43,490 nt of DNA from Lama guanicoe (Eukaryota). Made by a program: the position numbers and the translations under genes. Shown in pieces: positions 2,979-37,655 of this stretch. A model generated the notes under the pieces. It did not search any database, was not told the DNA's origin, and saw only the letters and a program-made list of their open reading frames with translations. Location of the stretch: assembly GCA_013239625.1 (NCBI GenBank), contig MU053859.1:155563-199052 (forward strand), in the 5' to 3' direction. Numbering within the stretch: the first letter of the stretch is position 1; each line of letters starts with the position of its first letter.

Positions 2979-3568
2979 TGTTGTGGAAAAATGTGTTCCA
3001 GGTCAGCATTACAGCTCGTTGTTGCAGCTCAGTCGTGACAGCAACCTGGGTCCAGGCGAGAGACCAAGCCGCACCCCTAGAGTTGGAGAACTCAGGTTTA
3101 TAAGGCCTACAGGACCAGAGAAGTTAACACTCCAAGCTCTGGACCCCGTCTGTATGTTTACACAGGCTTTTATAGGCTGTAGTTTACACTTTGCAACATC
3201 ATATGCAAATAAAGTATAACAAAAGTTCACCAACCAGGAACAAGCTTTGTAGAAATAGACCAATCAGGAGTGAGGGAAAAGGACCAATCAGGAGTGAGAG
3301 AAATAACCAATCAGGAGTGAGCTCCATGCAAATGAAGTACTACAAATGGACCAATCAGAAGTTACTGAAGTGGGCCAATCAGGAGTGAAGGAAATAACCA
3401 ATCAGAAGTGAGCTCAAGGAACCCATAGAATTTTAGGGGTAATTAAGCCATTTCAGAGGCAAAAGGTGAGATAGAGCCTTTGGGCCAGGGAACCAGACTG
3501 TGCTGGCAGGAGAGTAGTGGCCCTGCTTGGGGGGTCCTGCTGGTCTTTTTATGGGGCTTCCTGCCTCA
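2979..3568 (-). mobile_element. Solo LTR, class I ERV, CCAAT/octamer-rich family (copy 1)
   Basis: TG...CA termini; flanks atgg/atga (3 of 4 TSD bases match). TATA box (cctataaaag on minus), six ccaatcag repeats, ATGCAAAT at 3203 and 3326. Homologous to 6059-6548 and 37137-37655. Confidence 0.93.
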
Positions 3569-6058
3569 ATGAAGTGAATGTAACTCCAAGATCAATCCCT
3601 GTGAACTCAGAGGGGCTGAGACAAGACCCCCCCCCCCTCTAGTCATCTGATGTCCTTTGCACACATAAGATAAAGCACCCCTTTGGGGCTAGGGAGACTT
3701 TTTATAAAATTACCATATCTGCCCCTTCTGGGCTGAGACAGAGCCACCCCAACCCACCCAGATACAGACATCATGTGAGCTTTCTTAAAATTGATCATGC
3801 CCTAGGGCGTTCTCCCGCTACAGGTCGTAGGGCTCTTTTTTCATCCAAAATAGTTCTCTTTAAAATGACCCTCTCCACATCCAACATTCCAATCAGAGTA
3901 TTTGGCTTAGAGCTAGATAATGAAATTATTTACAACCGGCAGCGGATCAGCCCTGCGGCTTGGAGGCTGTAATGACACTGTGCACACAGGAGCGTCAACA
4001 AGCCGTGTGCTACCTGGAAGAGTAGTAGATGAATTTCCTGCAGAGGGCGATGTCTTAACCACGTTTGCCTTTTGTTCCAAGATGAAAGGAAATTTCACAG
4101 ATCTGTCAGCAGAAGAAACCTCTATTTATGGTCTCAGCTGAAGGAAGTGGGGCACTGGTTCGCGTCTTCTCTGCGGTGACAGCTGCAGGCAGAGGGTGGG
4201 ACTGCAAGGGCAAGTGATAACAACCTGTGTTTGTGGTACTCAATAGCCCTGCCCTATAGGTGTCTGCACCTGCTCTCTGTCCTCCCACTCATGCTTCCTG
4301 GGAAGAAGTAGCAACTTCTCCATAGTTCAGTCCAGCGCCTAAGGTCACCATGCCCTTCCAAGGCACAACAGGGCTTTCCCCCACACCCTGCACCATTTGC
4401 CTACCCAGAACTCAGGACCTGCTGCGCCTCCTCCAGAGCATCGCCCGGAAGTGGTGGCGAGGCTGGCTGCATCCCAGCCAGAGAGGCATCCGGCCAGAGG
4501 GAGTGTTCGAGGGTGGGGGAGGGAGACACTGACTCTAGGTTTCCACTGAAAGGAGGTCACTGGTGACCCTGACAGGAGCCGTTTTGGTGAAGTGATAGGG
4601 AAAAAAACCAAAAACATAAACAAGCAAACTAAAGCAGACATCCACGTGGGGTCAAGAGAAAATGAGCGGAGAGTAAGAGAAGAGGGGATTATCGACATCT
4701 CTTTTGAAGGTGTTGCTGTGAAAGGAGCATCAAAGTAGCTGATCATTGTCATTCTCACAGTGCAGCTGTGATGGGAGCTGTTTAACCCAAAGGAATCCTT
4801 GATTTTAGTTCCTGACGCTGCTCTTTCACTTATTGTTTTAATTTCTTTGGGAGTTTAATCAGCTAGCTTGAAACCATAGACTGTTTCGTTCCTGCCAAGT
4901 GCTTAGGTAAAGGGACAAGAAAGTTTGGATGGAATGGTTGAAGATGAAGAAAAATCTGATGCAACACAACATTGTGGAGAGAAGTGGGAGGGTGGAGGAC
5001 AACAGAAGCAGGACTGGAGCGTTAAGATTTGCAAAGAGGGCACTAGAAACTGGGAAGCAGAACAAACAATGTTGACAGACAACATAAAAACATTTATTCT
5101 TCCAAATTTTTCTCAAGGCACACCCTGCTGACAGTCTTCTCCTTATCATTTGGATTTTGCCACCAGAAGTCACTAGAGCTCAACTTTGTCCATCAGAGAT
5201 GAAGCCTTCCCAAGAAACTTACCAATGGTTTTCAAAGACAAATGAAACATGGCTGAAAAGCAGAACGAGCTGTAAAGAAAAAACACGCTGCTGTGGTCAT
5301 TATCTAGGGTTCTAGATGCAGAGGACTTGACTACATGATGTCCAGAGTCTTTATTTAACACATGGCAAAAGGGATTTTCTTTGCAATTATATTTTTCTGT
5401 TATTCCTTTCTGTGACAACAACAACAAAAGCAAACAATAAACCACTGTGAGAAGGATATTTTAAGTCAGTTACTGAGCAAGGGCGTGCTTGTTAACTATT
5501 TTTGGCTCCTGGGGCACAAAACAGATAGGTCCCTCCACGCAAAGGGCTGACCTGGAGGATCAACACAAGTTTAACTGAGGACGTAAAGCCTGAGGTGCAT
5601 TTGAGTGAAGTAGGAGTCAACCTGAAGAAGTAAACTGGAGAGGCGGTCCAGGGTGTGGAGGAGGTGGAGGAAGGCTTTCTGAGTAGTGAAAGCAGGCTTT
5701 TAAGTTCGTCAAGGCTTGCTGAAGATTTTTGTTAGTTTCTCTTTTCTTTTCTTTGCCATAAAAAATAAAACTGTACCTGTTTTGAAACTGGAAAAACTTG
5801 GAGCTGTATCTTTTTTTGGCGACTCGCATTCCATAGGATGAAGCTGATATTCTGCATTCTGTTCTACATAGTATTCTATCCAGTTTGTACACTGAGATCC
5901 CCACTGTGAACGGAAGTTCTTATTTCACCATGTTTCAGTTTGCACGTAATAGTAGTTTTCACAGCAGTAACCAAGATCAACCACTGTATGCACTTTTACC
6001 TCTTTTTCTTCTGTTCCCAGTCTCCTCAGAATCAGAACACATACATCCCCTGTGCTTG

Positions 6059-6548
6059 TGAGGCGGGAAGCCCCATAAAAAGACCAGCGGGACCCCCAGG
6101 GAGGGGCACTGCTCTCCGGCCAGCACCATCTGATTCCCTGGCGCAGAGGCTCTCTCACTTTTTGCCTGAAACTGCTCACTTACCCCTAAAATTCTATTGG
6201 TTCCCTGAGCTCACTCCTGATTGCTTATTTCCCTCACTCCTGATTGGTTGTTTCCTTCACTCTGATTGGTTATTTCTCTCCCTCCTGATTGGTCTATTTC
6301 TACAAAGCTTGTTCCTAGTTGGTCAACTTTTGTTATACCTTATTTGCATATGATGTTGCAAAGTGTAAACTGGCAGCCTATAAAAGCCTGTGTAAACTTA
6401 CAGACCTGGTCGAGAGCTTGGAGTGTTAACTTCTGTGGGCCTACTGGTGTAATAAACCTGAGTCCTCCAACTCTCCAAGTGCTGCTTGGTCTCTTGCACA
6501 GATCCATGTTGCTGTCACAAGTGAGCTGTAACACAATTTTCTGCAACA
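6059..6548 (+). mobile_element. Solo LTR, same family (copy 2)
   Basis: TGAGGC...CAACA with a perfect 4-bp TSD cttg. ctgattgg repeats, octamer atttgcat at 6342-6349, TATA cctataaaag near 6377, AATAAA at 6451. Confidence 0.95.
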
Positions 6549-7400
6549 CTTGCAATATGGTGTCCTCAACACTGGCCAGAGAACCGTGGTCCAAGCCTGG
6601 TGATGGTATTATGTATACCCAGGGCCCCTCAACACTCCTGGCAGGTGAATATTTGAGTTTCTCCATCAATCACCCATGTCTCTTAATTTTTCCATATTTT
6701 TCAATGCTCTGCCTTTCCATTCTGTTCTGTGACAATTTCAGTACAATCTGCTTGCTACCTCACCACTTTGCTTTTTGTTTTCAGCTAGGTCCATTCTTCT
6801 GTTTAGCCTTTCTATTCAGTATGTTTCAACAATAATTTGCTTTGTTTTGTTTTCAAGATTACAATCAGGCCCAGCCTGGTTGACACAAAAAGTAACCCTC
6901 TCCCACACTTATGGATCTCCCCAGTTCAGCACATACTGGGGAACATAAGCCAAATTCCCTGCAGTGAATCACAGCACTTTGGATGGAGAAGCAATGGAAG
7001 GAGAAGGAAGCCTCAGCTGAGGCCTTGCGGAGCAACAGACCTGAGGAAGCCCACACAGGTGGCTCAAGGAGAAGGGAGCTCAGTAGACCTTACCACACAC
7101 CCATCTTTTTAACCTTGTGTGCCAATAGGTGAGAACCAAGTTAGTCAGAAAAACAGTAACCACAAGAACAGACTTTAAACAGACAGGATTCTACTACTAG
7201 AAAACTGAAGAAAATGAAAGCACTGGATTTCAAGCAAAGTAATTACATTAGAGAAAGATTTAAAAGGGGACCCTAAGCAGTGTCTTGGCTTCACCCCGTT
7301 ACCAAAAGCAACATCTTCAGTTGGTTTATCAGTATAAATGAATGCAAGGAAAGCATGGGGAGACTAATCTATTAAGCACCTACAAATGTACGTCTGAAGG

Positions 7401-7539
7401 TCATTTCGGGCTTTGTCTCCTCATCTGGACGTACACGTCTGGCTTTGAACAAATCCACTTCCTCTCTGAGTAGTGCCTGGCACTGCTGGCCCCTTTGTCA
7501 TTCAAATAGGCACACTCGCCTCCTCCTTTAATAGGAAAA
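7401..7539 (-). CDS. CLEC2D: CLEC2D coding exon 5
   Basis: Acceptor ccattgcag|. Encodes FPIKGGGECAYLNDKGASSARHYSERKWICSKPDVYVQMRRQSPK, with TGA at 7403-7401. Confidence 0.95.
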
Positions 7540-10500
7540 CTGCAATGGATGAAGCAGAATCAATCAGTTGGTCACTGGACAATCCTTCAAATGCAGAGAG
7601 AATGAAGATGGAAAAATAAACAACATTAACTCAGCTTTTAAATAGAAGACACATCACACATGCCATCTCTTCAATATTAAAGATTACCCAGTAAGATATT
7701 TATTATTATTATCTCTTTCTAGAAACAAAAACAAAAAATAACCTTTGAACTTTCCAAGGTCCCATAACAAATAAAACTAGGATTTATACCTAAATCCATG
7801 AAAAACCTGGGCCTAAGCTATTTCCACCTTCCTCACTCTGAGAAAGAGAGAAGTGAAGAAATGCTACTATGTTGCAGGCACCTTCTTTTCATTCTTAGGG
7901 CCAGATTTTCTCCTGGCTTATGTGTTGATCACTAGTCAATGGGCTTTGATTAGCTGCAGCTACAAGAAATCAACTAGAGAGTCAATGAAGCAAATCTGTC
8001 TCCCATCTATAAGCGTAGTGTTCTTTTTCTTTTTTTTTTAACATTTTCTTATTGAGTTATAGTCATTTTACAATGTTGTATCAATTTCCAGTGCAGAGCA
8101 CAATTTTTCAGTTATACACGAACATACACTTATTCATTGTCACATTTTTTCTTCGCTGTGAGCTACCACCAGATCTTGTATACATTTCCCTGTGCTCTAC
8201 AGTATAACCTTGTTTCTCTATTCTGCATATGCCTGTCGGTAGCTACAAATTTTGAAGCGCAGTGTTCCTTACTACATCCAAAGCTCCAGTTGGCTCGTGG
8301 GAAAGGTCAGACCCATGGTCTTTTCCCAACAGTTTCAGCAATATTCCACTTCCTTAAATAGCTGGAGACCTCAGCAGCTTTTTCTAAGCCCCAGATTTCA
8401 CGACAGTCTTCATACTTCCCTGGTTGTTCTAGTACTAAAAATATGATGCTGTTCAGCTGAGTTTCATGGCCTGACACAGACATTTGGGTCAGCATTTAGA
8501 CTGTAAGTTTCTCCGCTTTGCTAGTTGAAATTTCAGTACTCTGTTGGGATTTGCTAATTGTTGAGACATGCTAGGTCTTAATAAATATAATGTTTTTCAT
8601 TTCCATAGTGATCATCAGTTTTCAATAACTGGATAGTTAACAATGTATTTGATCCTTAAAACACGTTTAGACAGAGTAAATACATCAGAATTGTAAAGAA
8701 AGAAAGGTTAATTCTAATATTTATCAAGCATCCAAAATTAGGCACTGCAGATACCACAGTGGATAAATATACATTCTAATTCCTAAAACTTACTATCTGT
8801 CCAAGGTCAAAGAGTTAATGAGTAAGAACTAGCTTTCAGACCTACTAATGTCCAGTCCAGGGCCCTTGTCACTAAATGTTTTCAGTGTTGGCTATTTTAT
8901 CATCATAAAGCAGCTTTTCAAAATCCCCTCATCTCCTCAGACAAGAAAGCATTTAGTGAAAATATCTGAATCCAAGTCTTTCAGCATTATCCAAAATGTT
9001 TTCAGTAATAGGAAGATCTTATAAATATACAATTGAGATTAAATTTGACAACGCCAAACTTTGCCTGTCCTATACCTTATAGCTATAATTTTATAAATAT
9101 TAGGTATTATTACCATCTCTCGTCATCCCCCTGTAAAGGGCCAAAGACTGATGCAATGGTAGTTTAATTTAGCAACTTATCTTGCATTTATGCAATATTT
9201 TAATGTTAAGCACATCACAGTCATACACCTCAAAACTCTGATCCTTTTGTCAACCGTAAGATCAACAGGGCAAGTACAATTGATTTTGTTACAGAGGTAG
9301 TAAGATGTTGTGTGGTTTGCTCAAACTGAAAAAGTTGGTAAATGACGTAGATAAGATTGGCATCAAATCTGTAGTCCTTGTACCGTGCCACCTGTGATAG
9401 GCTTTGGGTTGGTTCAAAGAGCTTGCAAAGCCCTTGCAACGTACAAACTGGCACTTCCTTTATGACTAATCATAAAATAAGAATTTTTAGAGCAAACAAC
9501 TGAAGAACACTCTCATTTTCAGGCAAAGTAAATTCAAACACAAACATTGCTGCCGTGTTTTTCAGAACTTACAAACTGTTCCATTCAGTGCCATTTATCC
9601 ATTTCCACAGCTGTCCTTCTTCTCTGCTCAGCCCAATCCAGTGGTCATAAGGGCCTTTATCCCTTAACAGGAAACCCTTCCAGAAAACACAGAGATAATA
9701 TTCATTAACCTGGCATTACTCAGCCTCTCCCAGAAGAAATGCCGCTTTTACGCTGGGTTTTTAACTGTTCTTTTAATTTTCTTCTTTTTAATCTTATATT
9801 GCTTAATAATACACAGAGAATACATTTAAGCTATCTATTTCCCTCAGTACTGCATCCATTGTACACCTTCAGTTTGGGTGTTTTGTGTTTTCATTTACTT
9901 TGTGTCAATGTATTTTCTAATTCCTCTGTGATTTCTTTTTTCATCATTCGATATTATGAGTGAGTTCTTTAGTTTCCACATGGTTGTGAATTTTTCCATT
10001 TTCCTTCTGTTATTGATTTCTAGCCTGATTCCATTATGACTGCAACAGGAACTTGGCATGGTTTCAACCTTGATGTTTTAAAAACAAACCTTGGGTTTAT
10101 CCTGCTAACACGGCAAGTCATTATATACTTAACACAACTGAGATGCACCATTTTGATGAGCAGACCATTGCTTGGAAACACTATTTTCATAGTACATGAA
10201 ATACAAGAGCTTAGGGTAACATGAGATTAACTCTGCTGTTGAACCTGTTAGTAAGGTTTTAATTCTTTTTGTCCTTTTCAGCTCCAGAATTTGTTTGGTT
10301 CCTTTCTATCTTTTTATTGATATTCTCATTTTATTTATATTGTTATGGAAATGACAGGCCAGCCAAGAAACAAGCACCACTCGGAGGGTTGGAGTACTCA
10401 GGTTTACTACGCCAGCGGGCTCAGAGGGGCTTCTGCTCCAAAGCTCTGAGCACTTCCAAGACGTGCACATGAGGTTTTATAGGGTTAATTACAAGTATGG

Positions 10501-13500
10501 GGCTATTAGCCAATGAGGTTCAAACAACAAAAAGCAAGGAATCAGTACACTGGAGCTTATCAATTTGGAACAGATCACGTTACTGACACTTGTTGAGCTT
10601 GGATTTACGAGTTAGCTTGTTAGCCCAGTAAACTGACACTAAACTTTAGATTTACAAGTTAGCCCGGCAGAACTTATATCAGTAAACCGACACTTATCAC
10701 ACTTAGATTTGTGACTGAGCTCGTTAGCCCAATAGACTGACACTAAACTTCAGATTTATGAGTTATCTTGTTAGCCCAGCTGGGCTTTTCCTTCACATTC
10801 CCCCTTCTTGATGCTTTCACAACCCTTGTTGGAGTAAGCATCATAAATTACATGTTGCAGGGGCTCATAATTGGAGGCTAACATCTGAAGTTTTATCGCC
10901 TCTATCCGCTCACTGACAAAGCGGGTCAGGAAGTTTAGGACACAGGGCCCAAACAGAGCTGCACAAATTAGGAGCAAGGGACTTATTTATGAACGGTGCC
11001 AGCCAGGAGGTCCAGCCCCAGGGGCCTGTCCATGGGCTCTTATCTAAAATATGTTTTCTCTTTTCCACTCGGTCTTGTAACTCTTGAACCATTCCTCTGA
11101 CAATTCCTGATTGATTGGCATAAAAACAACACTCTTCGTTTAGGAAGAGGCATAATCCCCCCTCTTTGGCTGTGAGTAAGTCCAGACCCCTCTTGTTTTG
11201 TAAGACCACCTCGGCCGGAGAGTCAGTCTGATTTTGCTGAGTTCCCAGGGTTTCTGCTATTCGTTGGAGGTCATGGCTGAATTTACATTTAACAGCTGCA
11301 TTGAGCTTTCCTCAAGCTTTGGCCGTGCGTTGACTAGCCAGGTTCCGGGTGTGGCTAGAGCAGGGCTCGTCGATCTTTTTTTTTTTTTTTGGTCCCTCTT
11401 GATCTTGATCTTGAGCGGGTCTCCCGGGACACTCTTAATATTTTTTAGGGACCCTCTGTCTGAGGTGCAGTCGCTGTCTTGACCCTGGAGTGGTGGATCC
11501 AAGGGATGATTCCTGCAACTTTAACAGCTGTAGGAGTAGTTAATACCACTAAATATGGTCCCTTCCATGTTGGTTTGAGAGGTTTCTTTTTCCAATCCTT
11601 TACCCATACCTGGTCACCTGGTTTATGGGGATGTACTTGAACCCCTAATGAAATGGGGGTTTTCTCTATCACCCAACCCCAAACTTCTCGTAGTGCTTTT
11701 CCTAGTCCCAACAGTTGTTGGTGGAGCCCTAAATTTCCTATTTCTGGGGTGGGATTTCTCATCCTGACTAAAGGTGGCGGTCGCCCATAGAGGATTTCAA
11801 AGGGAGAGTACCCAATATTAAATCTTGGGGTGCATCTAATTTGCAACAGAGCCAGGGGTAGAATGTCCACCCAGGGGAGCTGGGTTTCTTGGCTGATTTT
11901 AGCTATAATTTGTTTTAGAGTTCTGTTCATTCGTTCTACCTTCCCTGAACTTTGAGGCCGGTATGCTGTGTGCAGGTTCCAGCGGATGCTCAGTGCCTTT
12001 GCCACTTGCTGTACAATTTCTGACACAAAGGCGGGTCCATTGTCAGACCCGATGGAGGTAGGCATTCCAAATCGAGGGATAACATCCCTGAGAAGAGCCT
12101 TTGTCACTTCCCTTGCTTTCTCTGTCCTGGTGGGGTAGGCCTCTACCCACCCTGTGAAGGTGCAGACGAAAACCAGCAGGTACTTATATCCCTTACTGGG
12201 CCCAAGTTCAGTAAAGTCCACTTTTAAATCTTTAAAGGGAGCCAATCCGCATCGTTGTATTCCCATTGGCCCAGTTAGCCCTTGTTTTGGATTGTTTTGT
12301 GCACAGAGCAAGCAGCGTTGGGAAACTGATGCACACAGAGTAGGGAGACGAGAAATTAGGAAATATCGCTTTAAGAGGGCCTCCAAAGCCGTTTTTCCCA
12401 TATGTGTGGCTTCCTGTTGTTGTTGGACTAGATGATAAGCTAGTCGTTCTGGGATGAAAACACTTCCATCCACCATCCGTCCTTTCCTTTCTCTCCTCGT
12501 TCAGCCTGTGCCCACTTGTTTTCGTCGTGACTATATTCTGGGGCAGTGGGTAGCTCTGGCGCTGCCATAACTTTAATTATTGAGTGTTTTCAGGCGGCTG
12601 CTTTTCTTGCCTTTTGATTAGCTAGCCTGTTTTCCTGGCTCACAGGATCATTTTCTCTTTGGTGTCCCTTACAGTGAATAATGGCCACTTTCTTTGGATC
12701 CCACACTGTCTCCAGTAACTGTAAAATTTTTCTTTGTTTTTGATTTCTTTTTCCCCAGCAGTCAAAAGTCCCCTCTCTTTATAGATGGCTACATGTCCAT
12801 GCAAGGTTGCAAATGCATATTTGGAATCAGTGTATATGTTGACTTGCTTTCCTTTTTCTTCCCTTAGTGCCTGGACCAGTGCCCAGATCTCTGCTCGCTG
12901 AGCAGACCATCCTGGGGGAAGGGACTCTGCCTTTGTTACCTCTCGGGTTGTTGTTACAGCGTAACCTGCTCGCCGTTGTCCATCTTGAATGTAACTGCTG
13001 CTGTCTGTGAAAAGTTCCAGGTCTGGGTTTTGCAGGGGCTTGTCGGTTAGATCAGGTCTGCTTGCATACACCTCTTCCATGATTTTTTTCGCAGTCGTGG
13101 TCAGGCTGCCCTTCCCCCTCAGGCAAATATTTGGCTGGGTTTAAGGTTCACACAGTCTCTAGATGGACTCGTGGATTTTTATATAGAAGCCTCTGGTAGT
13201 GGGTCATCCTTGTGTTAGTTATCCATTTGTAACCTGGGCCGTTCATCAGGGCCACGACAGAATGGGGCACCTTTACATTTAAAGTCTGTCCCAGTATGAG
13301 TTTGTCTGCCTCATTGACCAGGAGGGCTGTGGCAGCGAGGGCCCGTAAACAGGGTGGCCATCCTGATGCTACAGGGTCCAGTCTTTCAGATAAATAGGAC
13401 ATAGGGCACTGCCATGGCCCCACATTCTGAGTTAGGACTCCAAGAGCAGTTTGGTCTCTTTTATGTACAAACAGATTAAACTCTCATGTTACATCTGGTA

Positions 13501-16500
13501 AGCCTAGTGCTGGGGCTTGGGTTAGTAGTTCCTTTAATTGCCTAAAGGCATTTTCTTGTTTAGTTTCCCATTTGAGGGTCTCTTTTTCTGATCCAGCAGT
13601 TGCTTCGTAGAGGGGCTTGGCTATTCTTGAAAACCCGGGGATCCATATACAGCAAAACCCAGCTGCGCCCAGGAACTCTCGCAGTTTTCTTTTGTTTCCG
13701 GTCTGGGTATGGTGCAAATAACTTGTTTTCGTTCTGGTCCTGGGGCTCGGTGTCCCTCTGAGATAATAAATCCCAAGTATTTGACTGTCTTTTTGGCCTG
13801 GACCGGCTGAGCTGCTAATATCTTGCATTGCCCAGGTTCATTTGAGCAAAACCAAATCCATGGGGGTGGAGTCTGGGCGATATTTAGCCAGGAGTCAATG
13901 TAAGGGAGTTGATCTGGGTGGCCTGGGGTTCCAGTGATTATTTGATAGACTGTTCACACTGTTGCTAGGTCCAGAGTTCCTCCTGAGGGCCACCCGACTC
14001 CAAAGGCCGGCCATTCAAGCTCACACAAAGTGTAGAGCCTGCCAGGGGTCATTTAAATTTTACAGTTTCCTGAGAACCCCTTTTTGAAATTTTTAATCAT
14101 GCAGTCTAGAGTGGTGGGTTTTGACTTAGAGCCTCCCATTCTTTTTAGATGTTTAAGGATAATAGTTCTGTTGCTTTAGACGTTTGGGAAGGTAGCCTTT
14201 ATATCTTTTTTCTTCACTCTTCAAAACACCGAAGTTCCCAGAGAGACTGCTCTCTTGCTGGGTCTATGAGTTGTTTTAAGGCTAACTTGATCAGGGACTC
14301 TGGGTTCCAGTCACAGCTGATGTCTCTGGATCTCAAGGCCTCAAGCAGTTTCAGGGGCTTTCTTCATTAAATCCTCTCTATATCCTGAACTAACGTATCA
14401 GGGGTGTGGGACTGAAGGCAGATGGCAAAACAAATGGACTAGAAAAGGGACCTCCGGGGCCGGGCAAGCCCGGTCCTGAAGGAATTTGTCTTCTAAACTT
14501 GAGTCCTGGGGGTCTGAGGCTAGGCAAAAGGGGCACTACTTGGGTCAGTTCAGTAGGGGAACAATAAGTCTCGGGTGTTCTGTGACAGAGTCAGGTAGGA
14601 GACTTTCTCAAAGAAATAGCATCCTAGCCTCCGAGGGCACAGGGGCGTTGACTCGTTGGCTGTGTATGTCCTTTTCCCTCCCAGTGTAGCCACCCTGTGC
14701 CGGTGTCGCAGACAAGACAAGGGAGGGTTTTCGTTGCGTCCGCCTGGCCGCTCCCCTCGCGGGGACGAAGGTGCCTCTTAGCTTTGGCGGGTCAGTATAA
14801 GCCGCTGACTCCGATCGGGACCCTGAGGGACCGATACCGCCCTGAGCCGTATGAGGTCACCACGGAACCGCAGGTTGGGACTCACTCGAACTCCGTAGCA
14901 GAATGCCGTGGAGCTACGAACTCGAGCCTGATCGCATGCTTCACAGGCCGCTCATTCACACATACACACACATACACACACACACACAGAGGTTAACAAC
15001 AGTCCTCCCACCAATTCCAGTATTCTGTTTCCTGTAGGAGGGGATCAGCCTTCTCTTCTGTCCACTGGGACAGGACCTGATCCCTGACCTGATTCCTGAT
15101 TTCCCCGTCTGAAATACCATCATACGGAGAGCCTGTAGGAGGGGACCAGCCTCCTCTTCTGTCCAATGGGACAGGACCTGATTCTTCCCGGGGGATCTTA
15201 CCTTGTCCAGACGGCCACCTGGTGAGTCTGTCCGTCCCTCCACAGAGTCTGGCTCTGATTGTAGCCCAGCCACCCGGGGACCGAGTTGCCATCACGAAAG
15301 AGAACCCGGAATACCGTCGGGCGGCGCCACCTCGTTCGCTGCCGGAGTCCCGTCCCCCGGTCGGCCGGAGCCACCAGTCCAGCGGCTCAAGGGGCCGGCG
15401 TGGTTGTATCTCGCTGGGGCCTCCAGAAATGTTACGGAAATGACAGGCCAGCCAAGAAACAATCACCACTCGGAGGGTTGGAGTACTCAGATTTATTACG
15501 CCGGCGGGCTCAGAGGGGCTTCTGCTCCGAAGCTCTGAGCACCTCCAAGACGTGCACATGAGGTTTTATAGGGTTAATTACAAGTATGGGGCTATTAGCC
15601 AATAAGGTTCAAACAACAAAAAGCAAGGAATCAGTACACTGGAGCTTATCAATTTGGAACAGATCACGTTACTGACACTTGTTGAGCTTGGATTTACGAG
15701 TTAGCTTGTTAGCCCAGTAAACTGACACTAAACTTATGAGCTTGGATTTACGAGTTAGCTTGTTAGCCCAGTAAACTGAAACTAAACTTTAGATTTACAA
15801 GTTAGCCCGGCGGAACTTGTATCAGTAAACCGACACTTATCACACTTAGATTTGTGACTGAGCTCGTTAGCCCAATAGACTGACACTAAACTTCAGATTT
15901 ATGAGTTATCTTGTTAGCCCAGCTGGGCTTTTCCTTCACAATATCATTTTCCTGATTTCTTTTCATTTCTTGCCTGTAGTTTCCTTCAGCTCACTGAACA
16001 TATTTTAAACAGCAGATTTAACATATTTGACTAAAATTTCCAATGTCTAAGTTCCCTTAGGGATGATTTCTGTCAGGTATTTTTTTTTTTCCTATGAATG
16101 GTCTATACTTTTCTATTCCTTTATATGTTTTGTAATTTATTGTTGACAGTTGGAAATTATGGGTATTTTGTAATAACTGAATCTTATTCTCCTGTTCTTC
16201 AGGGATTCTTGAATTTTTGATCATTGAAGCTTGGAGTCATCTCTTTGTGATGTTTCGGAACTGCTTTTGCAGAAAACGTATTCCCTTTTGCATGTGGTCA
16301 CTAAAATTTCTGTTCTGTTATCTCTCTATGATCAAGTTATCTGCCAAATATTTTCTTAAATGTTTGGTCCTCAAAAGGGAAAAATCAAACGCTATTTCTT
16401 TATGCCCCTTGGAAACCACTTCAGTTGGTGGAGTTTTAAAAATGGCACCTTTGTGCCTGCCCCTTAGCAATGAAAAGCAGATCTCAGAACTGACAATACA

Positions 16501-19500
16501 TAACCCCAGTATCTGGAGGTCCTCATTGTCAACCCTGGCTCCAGCAAGCTGCACCAGGACCAAGGACAGCAGTCCCCTGGCTCCCTGCTATAATGGGGTG
16601 TGAAGAATGGGGTGTGAAGAATGGTGGCCACTACTGAGCAGAAAGGCTGAACTTCACTAGATAAACTGAAATTTACCAACCTCTTCAACAAGCGTTCATC
16701 TAGACTCCACAGTTTCAAATTAGTTATTTTGGAGAGTTTCTGTCAATTCAATAGTTATTTAGGTGGAGGCACAAATTCCAGGGGCTTCCCACTCTGCCGT
16801 CTTCTCCAACATCACTCCTCCTTGACTTATTTTGAAGCAGTGTTATTAACTTCACAGAAATTTAAAATTGTTTCCACCTCTAATTTTGAAACCCCTATTT
16901 GCACAACCCTTGCTCATAATGAGACGGGAAGTGGGCAAGGTACAGCCATTCAAGGAATGCTACAGCAATTAACATCAAAATGGTAAAAGATTCAACCCCT
17001 AGGAGGCCTTGAGGCTCCAGATGGTGTGAGATTTAACTTCTAGCAGATCTTGAGCTTCATTATACGCTCATTGTAATATATTAACACGGTGAATAACATG
17101 CCCACAGGCACCAGGGCAGGCCCAAAGCTAGCCACAAAAGGTCAGAGTGGGAAATAGCCAACTTCCTGGGAATCCCAGCCCCTTCCCCAGACTAGTCAGA
17201 ATGGCCCTTCCACTTATTAGCATATGAAGCCACTGAGCCCATAAAAACTGGCAACACTGCCCCCACCCCCCCATTTGGAGACAGTGCACACTCTGTCTAT
17301 GGGGTATGTACCTACTTTTAATCTGAGCACTCAACCCCCACACTTCATAGCCTTTCTCTTGCCTTTCAGTGTATCTCTCTGAATAAATTTACCTTTACTC
17401 AACTATGGCTCGCTCTTGAATTCTTTCTTGCACAAAGCCAAGGAACCATACTTGGTGGGGCACGTCCCAGGGGCTCAGCTGAAGCCTGGGACATGGCCCC
17501 ACCTCATGCCCCACATCCATTTTTCGTGCATCAATAAGTCAAAGAAGGCACTGGCTTGCTCTCTGACTATCTTCCTGCTGTGAACGTTAGGGGAATTATA
17601 GATGGCACACATCAGAATGAAGGACCTGCTGGATTCCTCTCTTCTTATGCTGAAAGTTAAGTATCTAGGTAAATATAAAAACACAAAGAATGTCATAGTG
17701 TCTTGATGGGGTCAAAAATTTTTATTCTAGCCAGAAGTATTTTCTTACCAGTTCCTGGAGAGTTTCAACCTGAACAAGGTCAGCACCTTGTGAGTTACAA
17801 AATCTCTGGCTGAATGTCCAGTTCTTGGTGTCATCAGAAAAGTAGAAACACTTTCTTTGGAAACCAATCCAGTATTCTGGGCATGCAGGTACGAGACATT
17901 CTGATGGGTTTTGGTGGAAGATAGCTCTAGTTACTGAAATGAAAAACAACTGAAGTTTATATATTCCTACATAGATTTCCAAACAGAGCAATCCCCAGAT
18001 GGGCTTTCTAGAGAACAGGCCCTTTCATGTTCCCCACCTCTTGCTTAAAGAAAAACTTCTATAACTTCTATTTCCTGAATCTTCCCTGAATTTCAAAAAG
18101 TCTTACTCACCAGTTAATTATCAGAGAAGTCAGAACACACAGAGACAAAGAATAGCAATGGGCAGGAGAACTGGCAACAATTTAAACAATGATCACTCAG
18201 ATAGCAGTCACTGTGTGTTTATTTTCCCCTGAAGCACACAGGTAGCAATCGATGATTCACATTCCTAAATTGTTTTTACAGAAACCAGACTCCCATAAGA
18301 TGAAACCAAGCACTTAAAACCCAGACCCCTGAGAACTAGAAGGTTAATGATTGAAATTCCTGAAACATCACCCTGTGACCTCACTTTCAGCCAATCAGAG
18401 AGCTGTGCACACGCTGATCACGCACTCCACAACCCTTTCCCTCACACTGTCTTTAAAAACCCTTCCCTGAAAGCTGCTGGGGAGTTTGAGTCTTTTGAGC
18501 ATTAGCTGCTCATTGCTCCCTGTTTGGTGTCCTGCAGTAAACACTGCACTTCCTTCACCACAACCAGGTGTCAGTAGCTTGGCTTTGCTGTTCTTCAAGT
18601 GAGCAGACCCAAGGTGAGTTTGGTAACACAGGTGCTTTCTAATGCATTTTCCACCAGTTTTGTGAAATACTAAAAGTGCTATCGCATCTGCTCTGATTCA
18701 TGCAGCATGTGTGTTGTGGAAGTAAAAACAAATCTCTGTCTCCAGCTGTGACAGAATAGAGACTGCTACACATACTGGACAACAAACCTATTGACCAAAG
18801 TCCAAGCAAATCTTTCTTCTTTGTATTTGTTTTGCAAAATTCAAGTTTTGTTAGAGAAAGTGGTGAGTAATCACTCTGCTCCACAGTTCTGTCCAGAGAA
18901 TCTTGAGCACTAAGAAATTTTGGTAGGTGACCATGAGGATGACCATGAAGGGTTAATTATTACTTCTGTCTTAAGTCCGTTGTCCAAGCTCAATCGTATA
19001 CAAGTTTTATCATTACAAAACAAACGAGTAAACTGAAGCACAGAGTAGTTATTAGAGCTGTCCAAGGTTACAGAGCCATCACAAGTAAAAGAGCTGAAAT
19101 TCAATTCTGAGACAGCTGAATCCAGAATCTGCACTCAGATCTGTGCTCTTAAACGTTACACTGTCACTTGTAATTTGACTGGCAACTTGGTGACCTGAGA
19201 GCAATTTAATAAAAGATGAACAAGTATGCATTTAGGTGTGGTGAGGATGACAAAGGACATAAAAATATAAGAGGACATGAGCATATACTTCAATAAGTTA
19301 TTACCTGTCTTTGAATTGAATCGTAGATTTTATTTTAAATTGCTCAGAGTTATAAGATTCTGTATTATTCTGATCACGCCAAAACTTATCAGGAAGTCTG
19401 ACCTGGGACCTCAATGTTTTTTGACCCTCTCTTCTTTGCAATGTCATTAGCCTATACCCTAACTAATATGTTTTTTAAAAAATACACACTGAATCCTTGC

Positions 19501-22500
19501 CCAAAAGTCAACCATAAACACAATTTTACAAATTGTACACATAGGCTGTTACTGGTCTATTTCAATATATCTTCTACTAGAATCCTAGGCCCAATGACAC
19601 TGAAGTGATTTTAACTGAAAACACAGTTTCTGAGAGAAAATATATATAGTAAAACCACATGATAAAAGGCCTGGTAACAATGTAAATTAAAGCATAATCT
19701 GGCTGTCAATTGGGTTCTGCTTTCTGTAGATTCTGGTCATTCCATTAAATTTGTGGCAATGTGACTTCTATCTTACCTGGTTAAAACTTAAAACCCTCTT
19801 ATAAGGTTATTGGGATTTAATTCACTTGGTGAAATTAAAAAAAAACTATTAGAAGCTATAAAAGACAAGAAAATTATCATGCCTTCTTTTAGTAAATGGA
19901 ATTCTCCAGGTGAACAAAGATTGCAATTCACTTACCGAAAAAAGTAACCAGTACACACACCATGAATGTCAGACATAGGATAAGAACCACATGTAGTTTC
20001 AGGTTAAGTTCACCAGAATGCCTTTTGGAAGGACAATAACCTGGAAAAATCGTCGAAAAATATTTTTTGCATTAAATACAGACATCAGACTACTAGATGC
20101 ATTCCTCATCAAAATGTTACTTCCGTTTAATTCCTCCTCTTTTCACCAGAGAGATCTATTGACCTGTCATTTTACGAATTTACAATGCAGTCTTTAAAGT
20201 TGTATTGTTCATAGAAGTTAAAATTAAACACATAAACTATGAATTAGCCTTGCTGTGTCTCGAACTAGCTTGGTACATTTGTCACGATTGATGAGAGAAT
20301 TATCAGTACATTATTATTAATTATAAGTTTATAGTTTGCATTAGAGTTCACTCTTTGAGTTGTACATTATGGGTTTTGACAAATGAATAAGGAAATGTAC
20401 CCACCGTTAGTGTCATACAGAATGGTTCCACCGCTCCCCAAATCCACTGTGCCCCACCCATTCATTCTTCTTCTTGCTCTCACCCAACCCCAAAACCCTG
20501 GCAACCACTAATCTTTTTACTATCTCCCTTGCCTCTTCCAGAATATCATAGAAGTAGACTTATAGCATGTGTGTTTAGATAGCCACCTTTCCCGTATCAG
20601 TAGCATTTAAGGTTCCTTCATCACTTTGTGTCTTGATAGCTCATTTCTGTTTATCACTTAATAATACTCCAGAGTATGGATGTAATAGTTGGTGAATTCA
20701 CCTATTGAAGGAATTCTTTTTTTTTTTCAATTTTTCTCTTCTTTTTTGGGGGGGTGGTAATTAGGTTTGTTTATTTACTTATTCCTTTTTAGAGGAGGTG
20801 CTCGGGATTGAACCCAGGACTTTGAGCATGCTAGGCATGCACTCTAACGTTTGAGCTATATCCTCCCCCGAAGGACTTCTTGATTGTTTCCAACTTTTGC
20901 AATTATGAATAAAGTGGCTATATACACTCATGTTCAGGTTTTTGTGCAGATGTAGGTTCTCAGTTCATTTGGGTAAATACCAGAGTGCAATTTCTTGGTC
21001 ATAGGGTAAGAGTATGTTTAGTTCTGCAAAACGCTGACAAACTGTCTTCCAAAGTGGCTGTGCTATTTTGCAGTGCAGCAGCAGTGAATGAGAGTGCCTG
21101 TTGCTCCACAGCATCACCAGGACTTGGCGTCTAGGATTTCAGCCATCCTAAAGGGCACATGGTGGTCACATTGGTGTTTTGATTTTCAGCCCCCTGATGT
21201 TGTTCTACCAAGCAGAATATGATTATTTGCACTCTGTGTATCTTTTTTTTAGTGAGGTGTCAGTTGAAAGCTTTTGCCCACTTTTTAACTGGGATTTTTG
21301 TTTTCTTACTGTTGAGTTTAAGAATTCTTTATATGTTTTGAGTATCAATCCTTTATCAGATATACGTTTTGCAAAGACTTTCTCCAGTCTTCTCATTCAC
21401 TTAGTGGTATTTTTTATAGAACAGAAGTTTTTTATTTTGATGAAGCCCAACTTTATTAATTTTTTTTCTTTCGTGGATCATGCTTTTAGCCTTGTATTTA
21501 AAAACTCCTTACTGAACCCAAGGTCACCTAAAATTTCTGTGTTATCTTCTAGAAGTTTTACAGCTTTCCAGTTCACATTTAGGTCTTTGACCCATTTTAA
21601 CTTTTGTGAAAGGTGTGACGTCTGGGTCTAGATCCTTTTTTCTTTTTCTTTTTTTTTTTTGCATATGGCTGTTCAGTTGTTTCACCACCATATGTTGTAA
21701 ATACTGTCATTTCTCCATTGCCTTTGCTCCTCTGTCAAAATCAGTTGATGAGAGATGAGTCTGTTTCTGGGGTCTCTTTTCTCTTCCATTGGCCTGTTTG
21801 TCTATGTTTTCACCAATACCACACAGTCTTAATTGCTGTAGCTTTATAGTAAGTCTTGAAGTTAGGTAGTGTCAGCCCTCCAACTTTGTTCTTCAAAACT
21901 GTATTGGCTATTCTGGACTTTTCATCTTTCTGTGTAAACTTTAGAATAAGTTTGTAGATACCAATAAAATACCTCGGTGGGACTTTGAATTGAATGACTA
22001 GATTAAGTTGGGGAGAACTGACATTGTGACATTACTAAGTCTTTCTTTCCAAGTACATGGAATATACCTCCATTTATATTTTTACTAATTTCTCTCATCA
22101 AAGTTTTATAGTATTCTTTATATAAATCTTATATATATATTTGGTTATATTTATTCAAATTTTTGTTTCATGCTAATATAACTGGCATTGTGTTTTTAGA
22201 TTTTTAAAATTTTCTATATGGACATCAGTTTTCTATTTTAATTCCATTATGGCCCGAGAGCATATATTGTCTGATTTTTCTTCTTTTAATTTTTAAGCTA
22301 TGTTTTAAGGCTCAGAATGTGATCTAACTTGGTGGATGCTTAATGGGACCTTGAGACAAATGTGTATTCTACTGTTGTTAGATAAAATAGTTTTATCTAA
22401 TTACTGCTATCTTTAATTTGTGAGATCTGATGCAAACTACAATTAGAGTCAGAACTGAATTGAATTACAGGATACCCAATTGGTGTCAGAACACAAAGCC

Positions 22501-37136: not shown

Positions 37137-37655
37137 TGTTGCGGAAAAATGTGTTACAGCTCGGTGTTATAGCTCAGTTGTGACAGCAACCTGGATCTGA
37201 GCGAGAGACTAAGCAACAGTCAGAGAGTTCGAGAACTCAGCTTTATTATGCCAGTGGGCCCAGAGGAGTTAACACTCCAAGCTCTGGACCCCGTCTGTAG
37301 GTTTGCACAGGACTTTATCATATGCAAATAAAGTATAACAAGTTGACCAACTAGGAATAAGCTTTGTAGAAATAGACCAATCAGGAGTGAGAGAAATACC
37401 CAATCAGGAGTGAGCTCCATGCAAATGAAGTACTACAAATGGACCAATCAGAAGTGAGAGTAATAACCAATCAGGAGTGAAGGAAACAATCAATCAGAAG
37501 TGAGCTCAGGGAACCAATAGAATTTTAGGGGTAAGTAAGCCGTTTCAGAGGCAAAAAGTGAGATCTTCCTGGTCAGGGAACCGGATGGTGCTGGCAGGAG
37601 AGAAGTGGCCCTGCCTGGGGGTCCTGCCAGTCTTTTTATGGGGCTTCCTGCCTCA
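37137..37655 (-). mobile_element. Solo LTR, CCAAT/octamer-rich family (copy 3)
   Basis: TG...CA with a perfect TSD tcat. ccaatcag repeats; ATGCAAAT at 37322 and 37419; a short deletion through the TATA region. Confidence 0.95.

Follow-up and report, generated by a model that had tools for sequence, protein, structure and literature searches.

We report a defective gamma-type (ERV1) endogenous retrovirus (ERV) in intron 3 of CLEC2D, the gene for LLT1, in a 43,490-nucleotide (nt) stretch of Lama guanicoe DNA (assembly GCA_013239625.1, contig MU053859.1, positions 155,563 to 199,052 of the forward strand; hereafter the window). The provirus is 5600 nt long (15940-10341, minus strand) and lies in sense orientation, on the same strand as the gene. 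Overall, the element is real, defective and moderately young for an ERV1; its position is risky without being rare, and we consider it probable that it is a tolerated passenger. Exon 3 would then be joined to exon 4 and the provirus removed with the intron, giving at most minor side transcripts. The element itself would have been non-autonomous and already broken, copied with help from intact relatives, and would have entered the South American camelid lineage roughly 3-5 million years (Myr) ago.

The host gene has five coding exons on the minus strand, with a GT-AG pair at every splice site and a single open frame. Exon 1 lies at 25232-25172, exon 2, which encodes the transmembrane segment, at 20040-19936, exon 3 at 17933-17749, exon 4 at 9676-9573, and the coding part of exon 5 up to the stop at 7539-7401. 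With exon 3 as query, a protein search yielded 45 candidates, of which 44 were homologs; at their head stands a camelid cluster of four RefSeq-type proteins, to all of which the translated exon 3 is identical. An exon-by-exon comparison of the window's protein, over 194 residues, shows 4 differences from alpaca RefSeq and 9-10 from the three Camelus proteins. These counts most likely indicate a South American camelid, and an Old World camel was rejected as host. By its best match, its five-exon structure and its open frame, the gene is the ortholog of CLEC2D (LLT1), and this copy is most likely not the alpaca reference haplotype. The open frame, the GT-AG sites and the small difference from alpaca are reasons to regard the insertion as tolerated. 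The gene had been called intact in an earlier sequence-only reading of this DNA, which holds for its frame and exons and fails at one otherwise invariant residue in exon 4, treated below.

The provirus was delimited by its LTR (long terminal repeat) pair, termini, flanks, Pfam domains and a tblastn map; all its features are on the minus strand. Its 5' LTR (15940-15430, 511 nt) and 3' LTR (10797-10341, 457 nt) have TG...CA ends, and a 4-bp target-site duplication flanks the element (upstream copy 15941..15944, downstream copy 10337..10340). The LTR pair and the duplication together lie far beyond chance. The flanks at the upstream copy resemble what we take to be an old L1 fragment. A primer-binding site, recognised by sequence and presumably of tRNA-Thr type, lies at 15408..15425 and a polypurine tract at 10798..10809. 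The 5' LTR holds TATAAA at 15570 and AATAAA at 15497, followed by a GU/U-rich stretch, and the CpG-rich R/U5/leader region (14600..15560; 59 CpG in 961 nt, GC 0.59, observed/expected 0.72) is likely a methylation target. A splice donor, AAG/GTAAGA, with a 7/9 match to U1, lies at 15196..15204 and would cut after 15202. Right after this donor the leader contains a 51-nt direct repeat (94%; 15031-15081 and 15132-15182), then a TG microsatellite near 14990-14958. The earlier reading had placed provirus and gene on one strand, had counted about 10 differences in 457 LTR positions, and had seen TATA and AATAAA in the 5' LTR; all three statements are confirmed. It had missed 54 additional nt in the U3 repeats of the 5' LTR, which constitute an indel between the LTRs, and the fact that the 3' LTR has the poly(A) hexamer AGTAAA (at 10408) instead of AATAAA. 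Host-side AATAAA motifs lie 6 and 23 nt past the LTR (10335 and 10318).

Between the LTRs, a gag matrix stub (13846..14139, two in-frame stops) is followed by a deletion of about 880 reference codons, comprising the remaining gag, pro and most of the reverse transcriptase (RT). Then come the RT end with RNase H (12500..13812, three stops and four frame changes), an open integrase frame of 351 codons (11448..12500, domains rve and MLVIN_C) and an env transmembrane stub (10913..11311, TLV_coat positions 431-537 of 560) from which the surface part is absent. The Pfam matches have E values of 3e-06 for Gag_MA, under the curated cut-off, 3e-20 for MLVIN_C and 4e-36 for TLV_coat, and the matrix is 52% identical to P0059 over 100 residues. 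With a gamma-type matrix, an MLV-type integrase C-terminus, a gamma-type env transmembrane part, TG...CA LTRs, a primer-binding site and a polypurine tract, the element bears the hallmarks of ERV1 and is classed by its sequence as a defective gamma-like member. A replication-competent provirus is ruled out by two large deletions, five stops and four frame changes. Among the best 120 of 261 integrase matches, to proteins of 616-2000 residues, the closest are bat ERV proteins (61-66% identity), next lizard ERVs (about 50-55%), while named exogenous gammaretroviruses reach 44-47%. The bat proteins, gamma-like ERV pol of Cnephaeus nilssonii (P0049-P0051), match across the integrase but are too distant for the same family. 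In a search for family copies, relatives were encoded by 0 of 102 pattern hits from metagenome contigs and by 0 of 13 from viral contigs.

The two LTRs differ by 10 substitutions in 457 aligned columns (2.2%; nine transitions, four at CpG). With neutral rates that were assumed, not measured, of 1.1, 2.2 and 3.5e-9 per site per year, this corresponds to 10, 5.0 and 3.1 Myr, with a 95% range of 2.4-9.2 at the middle rate and 3.0 Myr without CpG sites, so that at these rates the insertion would be roughly 3-5 Myr old. Old World camels branched off far earlier than Lama and Vicugna parted from each other. The Lama-Vicugna separation is put at 2-3 million years ago (Mya) (PMC7331169; here and below, literature statements are drawn from parts of the papers cited), and an LTR burst at 1.5-4 Mya, including short, possibly non-autonomous ERV1 clusters, is described in alpaca (PMC8605555). 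Set against the split dates, the LTR age suggests an insertion that Camelus likely lacks and that dates from near or before the Lama-Vicugna split, and the provirus is thus likely restricted to South American camelids. Ordinary within-species polymorphism is unlikely because of this age. Were only one of the two genera to carry the insertion, it would segregate in alpacas, since these have 36% llama ancestry (PMC7331169).

The defects themselves point to an element that was broken before it arrived. All five stops and four frame changes lie between 14139 and 12500, and none is within the integrase frame. The 1.1% of post-insertion change predicts 0.8 stops instead of five (P = 0.002, or 0.019 with the upper bound). 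A distribution of all nine breaks outside the integrase frame has P = 0.012 if breaks are uniform, these statistics relying on assumed frameshift rates. Because of this excess of stops and the avoidance of the integrase frame, we favour a progenitor that was already broken before insertion. The same pattern would arise if the LTRs had been homogenised and the copy were older than its LTR age, which we do not favour; signs of conversion are reported for 1787 alpaca elements (PMC8605555). The short ERV1 clusters of Vicugna pacos in the same paper resemble our provirus in class, host lineage, age range and internal deletions, but the provirus here retains its 351-codon integrase frame. We count these clusters and the broken progenitor (P = 0.012) in favour of a tolerated passenger. 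A published account of this CLEC2D insertion was not found in a search that covered mostly titles and the beginnings of abstracts; the supplements of PMC8605555 may list the element.

The exon-4 acceptor is 664 nt away from the provirus and the exon-3 donor 1808 nt. At over 5 kb, the provirus therefore has the geometry that PMC3088655 defines as mutagenic-type (sense, full-length, less than 2 kb from an exon) and falls in the under-represented zone of that study. The earlier reading had invoked a strong antisense bias of intronic ERVs. Such a bias exists, but sense copies of human ERV families are depleted by a factor of no more than two to three (PMC1794541). Of the 10150 full-length intronic LTR elements counted in mouse, 1447 are less than 2 kb from an exon, and 435 of these 1447 (30%) are in sense orientation (PMC3088655). 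For human LTR elements, contact with a chimeric expressed sequence tag is seen in 2.9% of those within the 5-kb zone (PMC3088655). Hundreds of such sense copies are present in reference genomes, and a sense, full-length ERV near an exon is an uncommon but known arrangement, less unusual than had been implied; these base rates argue for tolerance. The closest known systems, the sense intronic ERVs of mouse (ETn/MusD, and IAP in Trpc6, Kcnh6 and Adamts13; PMC1794541, PMC3088655), share with our element the sense orientation, a length above 5 kb, a distance below 2 kb from an exon, and two LTRs with an internal donor and poly(A) signal. They differ in being recent inbred-strain polymorphisms with demonstrated chimeric RNA, whereas the provirus here is known from sequence alone; they also use 5' LTR acceptors, of which none passes our filter here, and the LTRs here are 2.2% diverged. 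By its age, our provirus would stand nearer to the filtered than to the fresh class of insertions. Intron 3 also holds an older LTR-like piece at about 16870-17540. Its AATAAA (17382) reads on the plus strand, so that this piece is antisense to the gene, in line with the usual bias.

Splice signals were scored with a crude filter of our own making, which counts U1 matches for donors (at least 7/9) and combines a pyrimidine count with YAG for acceptors, and which would reject CLEC2D's own exon-4 acceptor. Per kb, the provirus contains 0.71 donors, 1.25 acceptors and 0.18 AATAAA, against 0.87, 1.83 and 1.13 on the sense strand of the host introns. On average, 200 first-order Markov controls contain 4.5 donors, 8.9 acceptors and 2.7 AATAAA, against four, seven and one in the 5.6 kb of the provirus, and AGGTAAG occurs in 44% of the controls. 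Motif enrichment in the provirus was accordingly rejected, the density being at or below that of both comparisons. The TATA box, poly(A) signal and donor are the virus's own signals, as judged by position rather than number: TATA precedes poly(A) within the LTR, and the donor, 295 nt past the 5' LTR AATAAA and between primer-binding site and gag, occupies the place of the retroviral major donor. In the 5' LTR and leader (15940-14600) no acceptor passes the filter, and the first is found at 14579; in ETn, by comparison, the acceptors lie in the 5' LTR (PMC1794541). The risk to CLEC2D that the earlier reading saw in a sense provirus is thus real in its geometry, but its signals are not enriched and no acceptor in the 5' LTR passes the crude filter. 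The lack of filter-passing acceptors in the 5' LTR and leader, the ordinary motif density and the AGTAAA of the 3' LTR all favour a tolerated passenger.

Precedents exist for the silencing of a 5' LTR poly(A) site. In HIV-1, suppression of the site works through U1 and a donor that lies 195 nt downstream, and in MoMLV the poly(A) sites are weak and donor-independent (PMC3694450). By analogy, each of these two mechanisms would restrict the cleavage of host transcripts at the 5' LTR. These precedents, and the full length of all four camelid cluster proteins, add to the case for tolerance.

A clearly less probable reading, though one that deserves weight, is that a substantial part of the CLEC2D transcripts is lost to the provirus, giving exon 1-3 membrane forms with a tail of 0-89 residues and less full-length LLT1. 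Exon 3 would be spliced to an acceptor at 17127, 16587, 14579, 14411 or 12151, or be read through, and transcripts would end at the 5' LTR AATAAA or near the 3' LTR; there are ten candidate acceptors, intronic or proviral, and a junction between exon 3 and any one of them adds 0-89 residues before a stop. The provirus is sense, full-length and inside the hazard zone, the exon-4 acceptor is weak, and IAP in Trpc6 and Kcnh6 (PMC3088655) and the modes of ETn (PMC1794541) provide precedents. The exon-4 acceptor ends in AAG, whereas CLEC2D's other three end in CAG, and some competition is plausible because seven proviral candidates are as good on pyrimidines as this weak acceptor. Yet proviral motif density is ordinary, the provirus has persisted for some Myr in an open-frame gene, and an effect was demonstrated for only five genes among 44 mouse cases, all inbred-strain polymorphisms (PMC3088655). 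Moreover, host AATAAA motifs at 17726 and 16141 precede the provirus, which is therefore not needed for truncation.

The first of these host motifs (17726-17721, minus strand) lies 23 nt into intron 3 and overlaps the stop of the eight-residue read-through tail of exon 3; it is a candidate, from its sequence only, for a ready-made truncated CLEC2D isoform that would not depend on the provirus. Among the homologs, five that come from bats, gibbon and lemur (P0005, P0007, P0008, P0020, P0042) end after exon 3. Several splice variants are described for CLEC2D in human, and some of them stay in the endoplasmic reticulum (PMC4041007). The exon 1-3 membrane forms predicted here would resemble these in lacking most of the lectin-like domain, but those lineages split off long before the insertion, which this type of isoform therefore does not need. 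Given the host AATAAA after exon 3 and such forms in other lineages, exon 1-3 forms would not implicate the provirus. No truncated camelid CLEC2D was found in two shallow protein searches (45 and 2 candidates), the second of which, with alpaca residues 1-55 as query, gave one match among its two candidates, namely the full-length cluster. The parts of PMC7409338 available to us contain nothing on LLT1 isoforms. The alpaca RefSeq protein P0047 is labelled isoform X3 of a 'CLEC2D-like' gene, and the isoforms X1 and X2 that this label implies did not appear in either search.

It has also been proposed that the 5' LTR promotes transcripts spliced from 15202 to exon 4, yielding LTR-exon 4-5 chimeras, which we regard as improbable. 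The TATA box, the CpG-rich leader and the 7/9 donor are all retained, and all four CpG differences between the LTRs are losses in the 3' LTR (1 in 8 by chance, not significant). The donor said to face exon 4 is indeed present, but 5.5 kb and seven candidate acceptors lie between them, and together with three poly(A) hexamers near the 3' LTR these would be met before exon 4. Retroviral env acceptors usually lie in the integrase region, where one of the seven candidates is located. Such a chimera would be non-coding, because the leader's only ATG starts a frame of 36 codons that is not in register, and the first ATG in the CLEC2D frame gives seven residues without a transmembrane part; a coding chimera was rejected for the same reason.

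The codon at 9661-9659 (minus strand, exon 4) specifies Asp at the equivalent of human Tyr125, one of five aromatic residues in the dimer core of LLT1 (PMC4356368). This position is Tyr in all 42 homologs that bear the motif, including alpaca and the three Camelus; 5 of the 47 proteins lack the exon. The Asp may be a true damaging allele or a one-base assembly error. It raises a further possibility, to which we give little credence, that the insertion haplotype is a decaying low-function allele in which the provirus cut expression, selection was relaxed and the dimer-core Tyr was lost. Replacement of a residue that is constant in 42 of 42 homologs and belongs to the human dimer core (PMC4356368) speaks for it, but this is one base only, perhaps an assembly error or an unrelated rare variant. 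The gene has neither stop nor frameshift, and the lineage changes relative to Camelus seem balanced, with two here and two in the alpaca RefSeq protein. Similarly improbable is a low-function LLT1 haplotype segregating in South American camelids, in which the provirus would divert transcripts to exon 1-3 forms, the dimer-core Tyr would be lost, and llama-alpaca introgression would have spread both.

Several points weigh against a tolerated passenger. The provirus has every risk feature. Its 5' LTR retains AATAAA and a downstream GU-rich stretch, and the exon-4 acceptor is the weakest-looking of the four, with a pyrimidine count that seven proviral candidates equal or exceed. In MoMLV, which is the closer model, U1 shielding is donor-independent. 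In mouse, 29 of 40 mutagenic LTR insertions lie in the 2-kb zone and 20 of 26 of those are sense; chimeric transcripts, mostly minor, are known for 19 of 44 polymorphic full-length insertions (PMC3088655). The Asp at the Tyr125 equivalent could reflect relaxed selection on this haplotype. The splice scores come from a crude filter, the protein searches were shallow, the annotated alpaca reference may lack the insertion, and support for tolerance comes from sequence.

Other features of the window concern the surroundings of the gene. Part of the upstream flank (15941-20100, flank only, without the insertion) is present in 20 of 24 listed runs, all at contig level, and half or more of it in 14 (share 0.73-0.79, five organism labels); the share is 0.06-0.08 in three listed RNA runs, which has no bearing on insertion or expression. 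Three related LTR-like repeats (3009-3568, 6059-6534 and 37154-37655) share 75-79% mutual identity, and the second, about 0.9 kb past the CLEC2D stop, may fall in the 3' untranslated region (UTR). Rodent Clec2 3' UTRs contain discontinuous hammerhead ribozymes (PMC4041007). An Rfam scan of 4500-17600 gave no match, including on the corresponding 3' side of CLEC2D (7400-4500, minus strand), and a split hammerhead would escape Rfam. Upstream of CLEC2D lies a second CLEC2-family gene (exons 3-5 at about 43050-41100, minus strand; exon-4 acceptor ending CAG), possibly the CLEC2F of PMC6614441; in the available parts of that paper on camel NK (natural killer) genes, CLEC2D is named once and an LTR is not mentioned.

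As a passenger, the provirus would count among the several hundred sense, exon-near, full-length ERVs of a mammalian genome and could at most serve to mark the South American camelid lineage. Should it instead redirect transcripts, llamas or alpacas would have in it a naturally occurring regulatory allele of an inhibitory NK- and T-cell ligand. The change from the dimer-core tyrosine to Asp would bear on LLT1 function regardless of any effect of the provirus, and a low-function LLT1 haplotype, if true, would provide a natural test of NKR-P1:LLT1 loss in species that serve as livestock and as a source of nanobodies.

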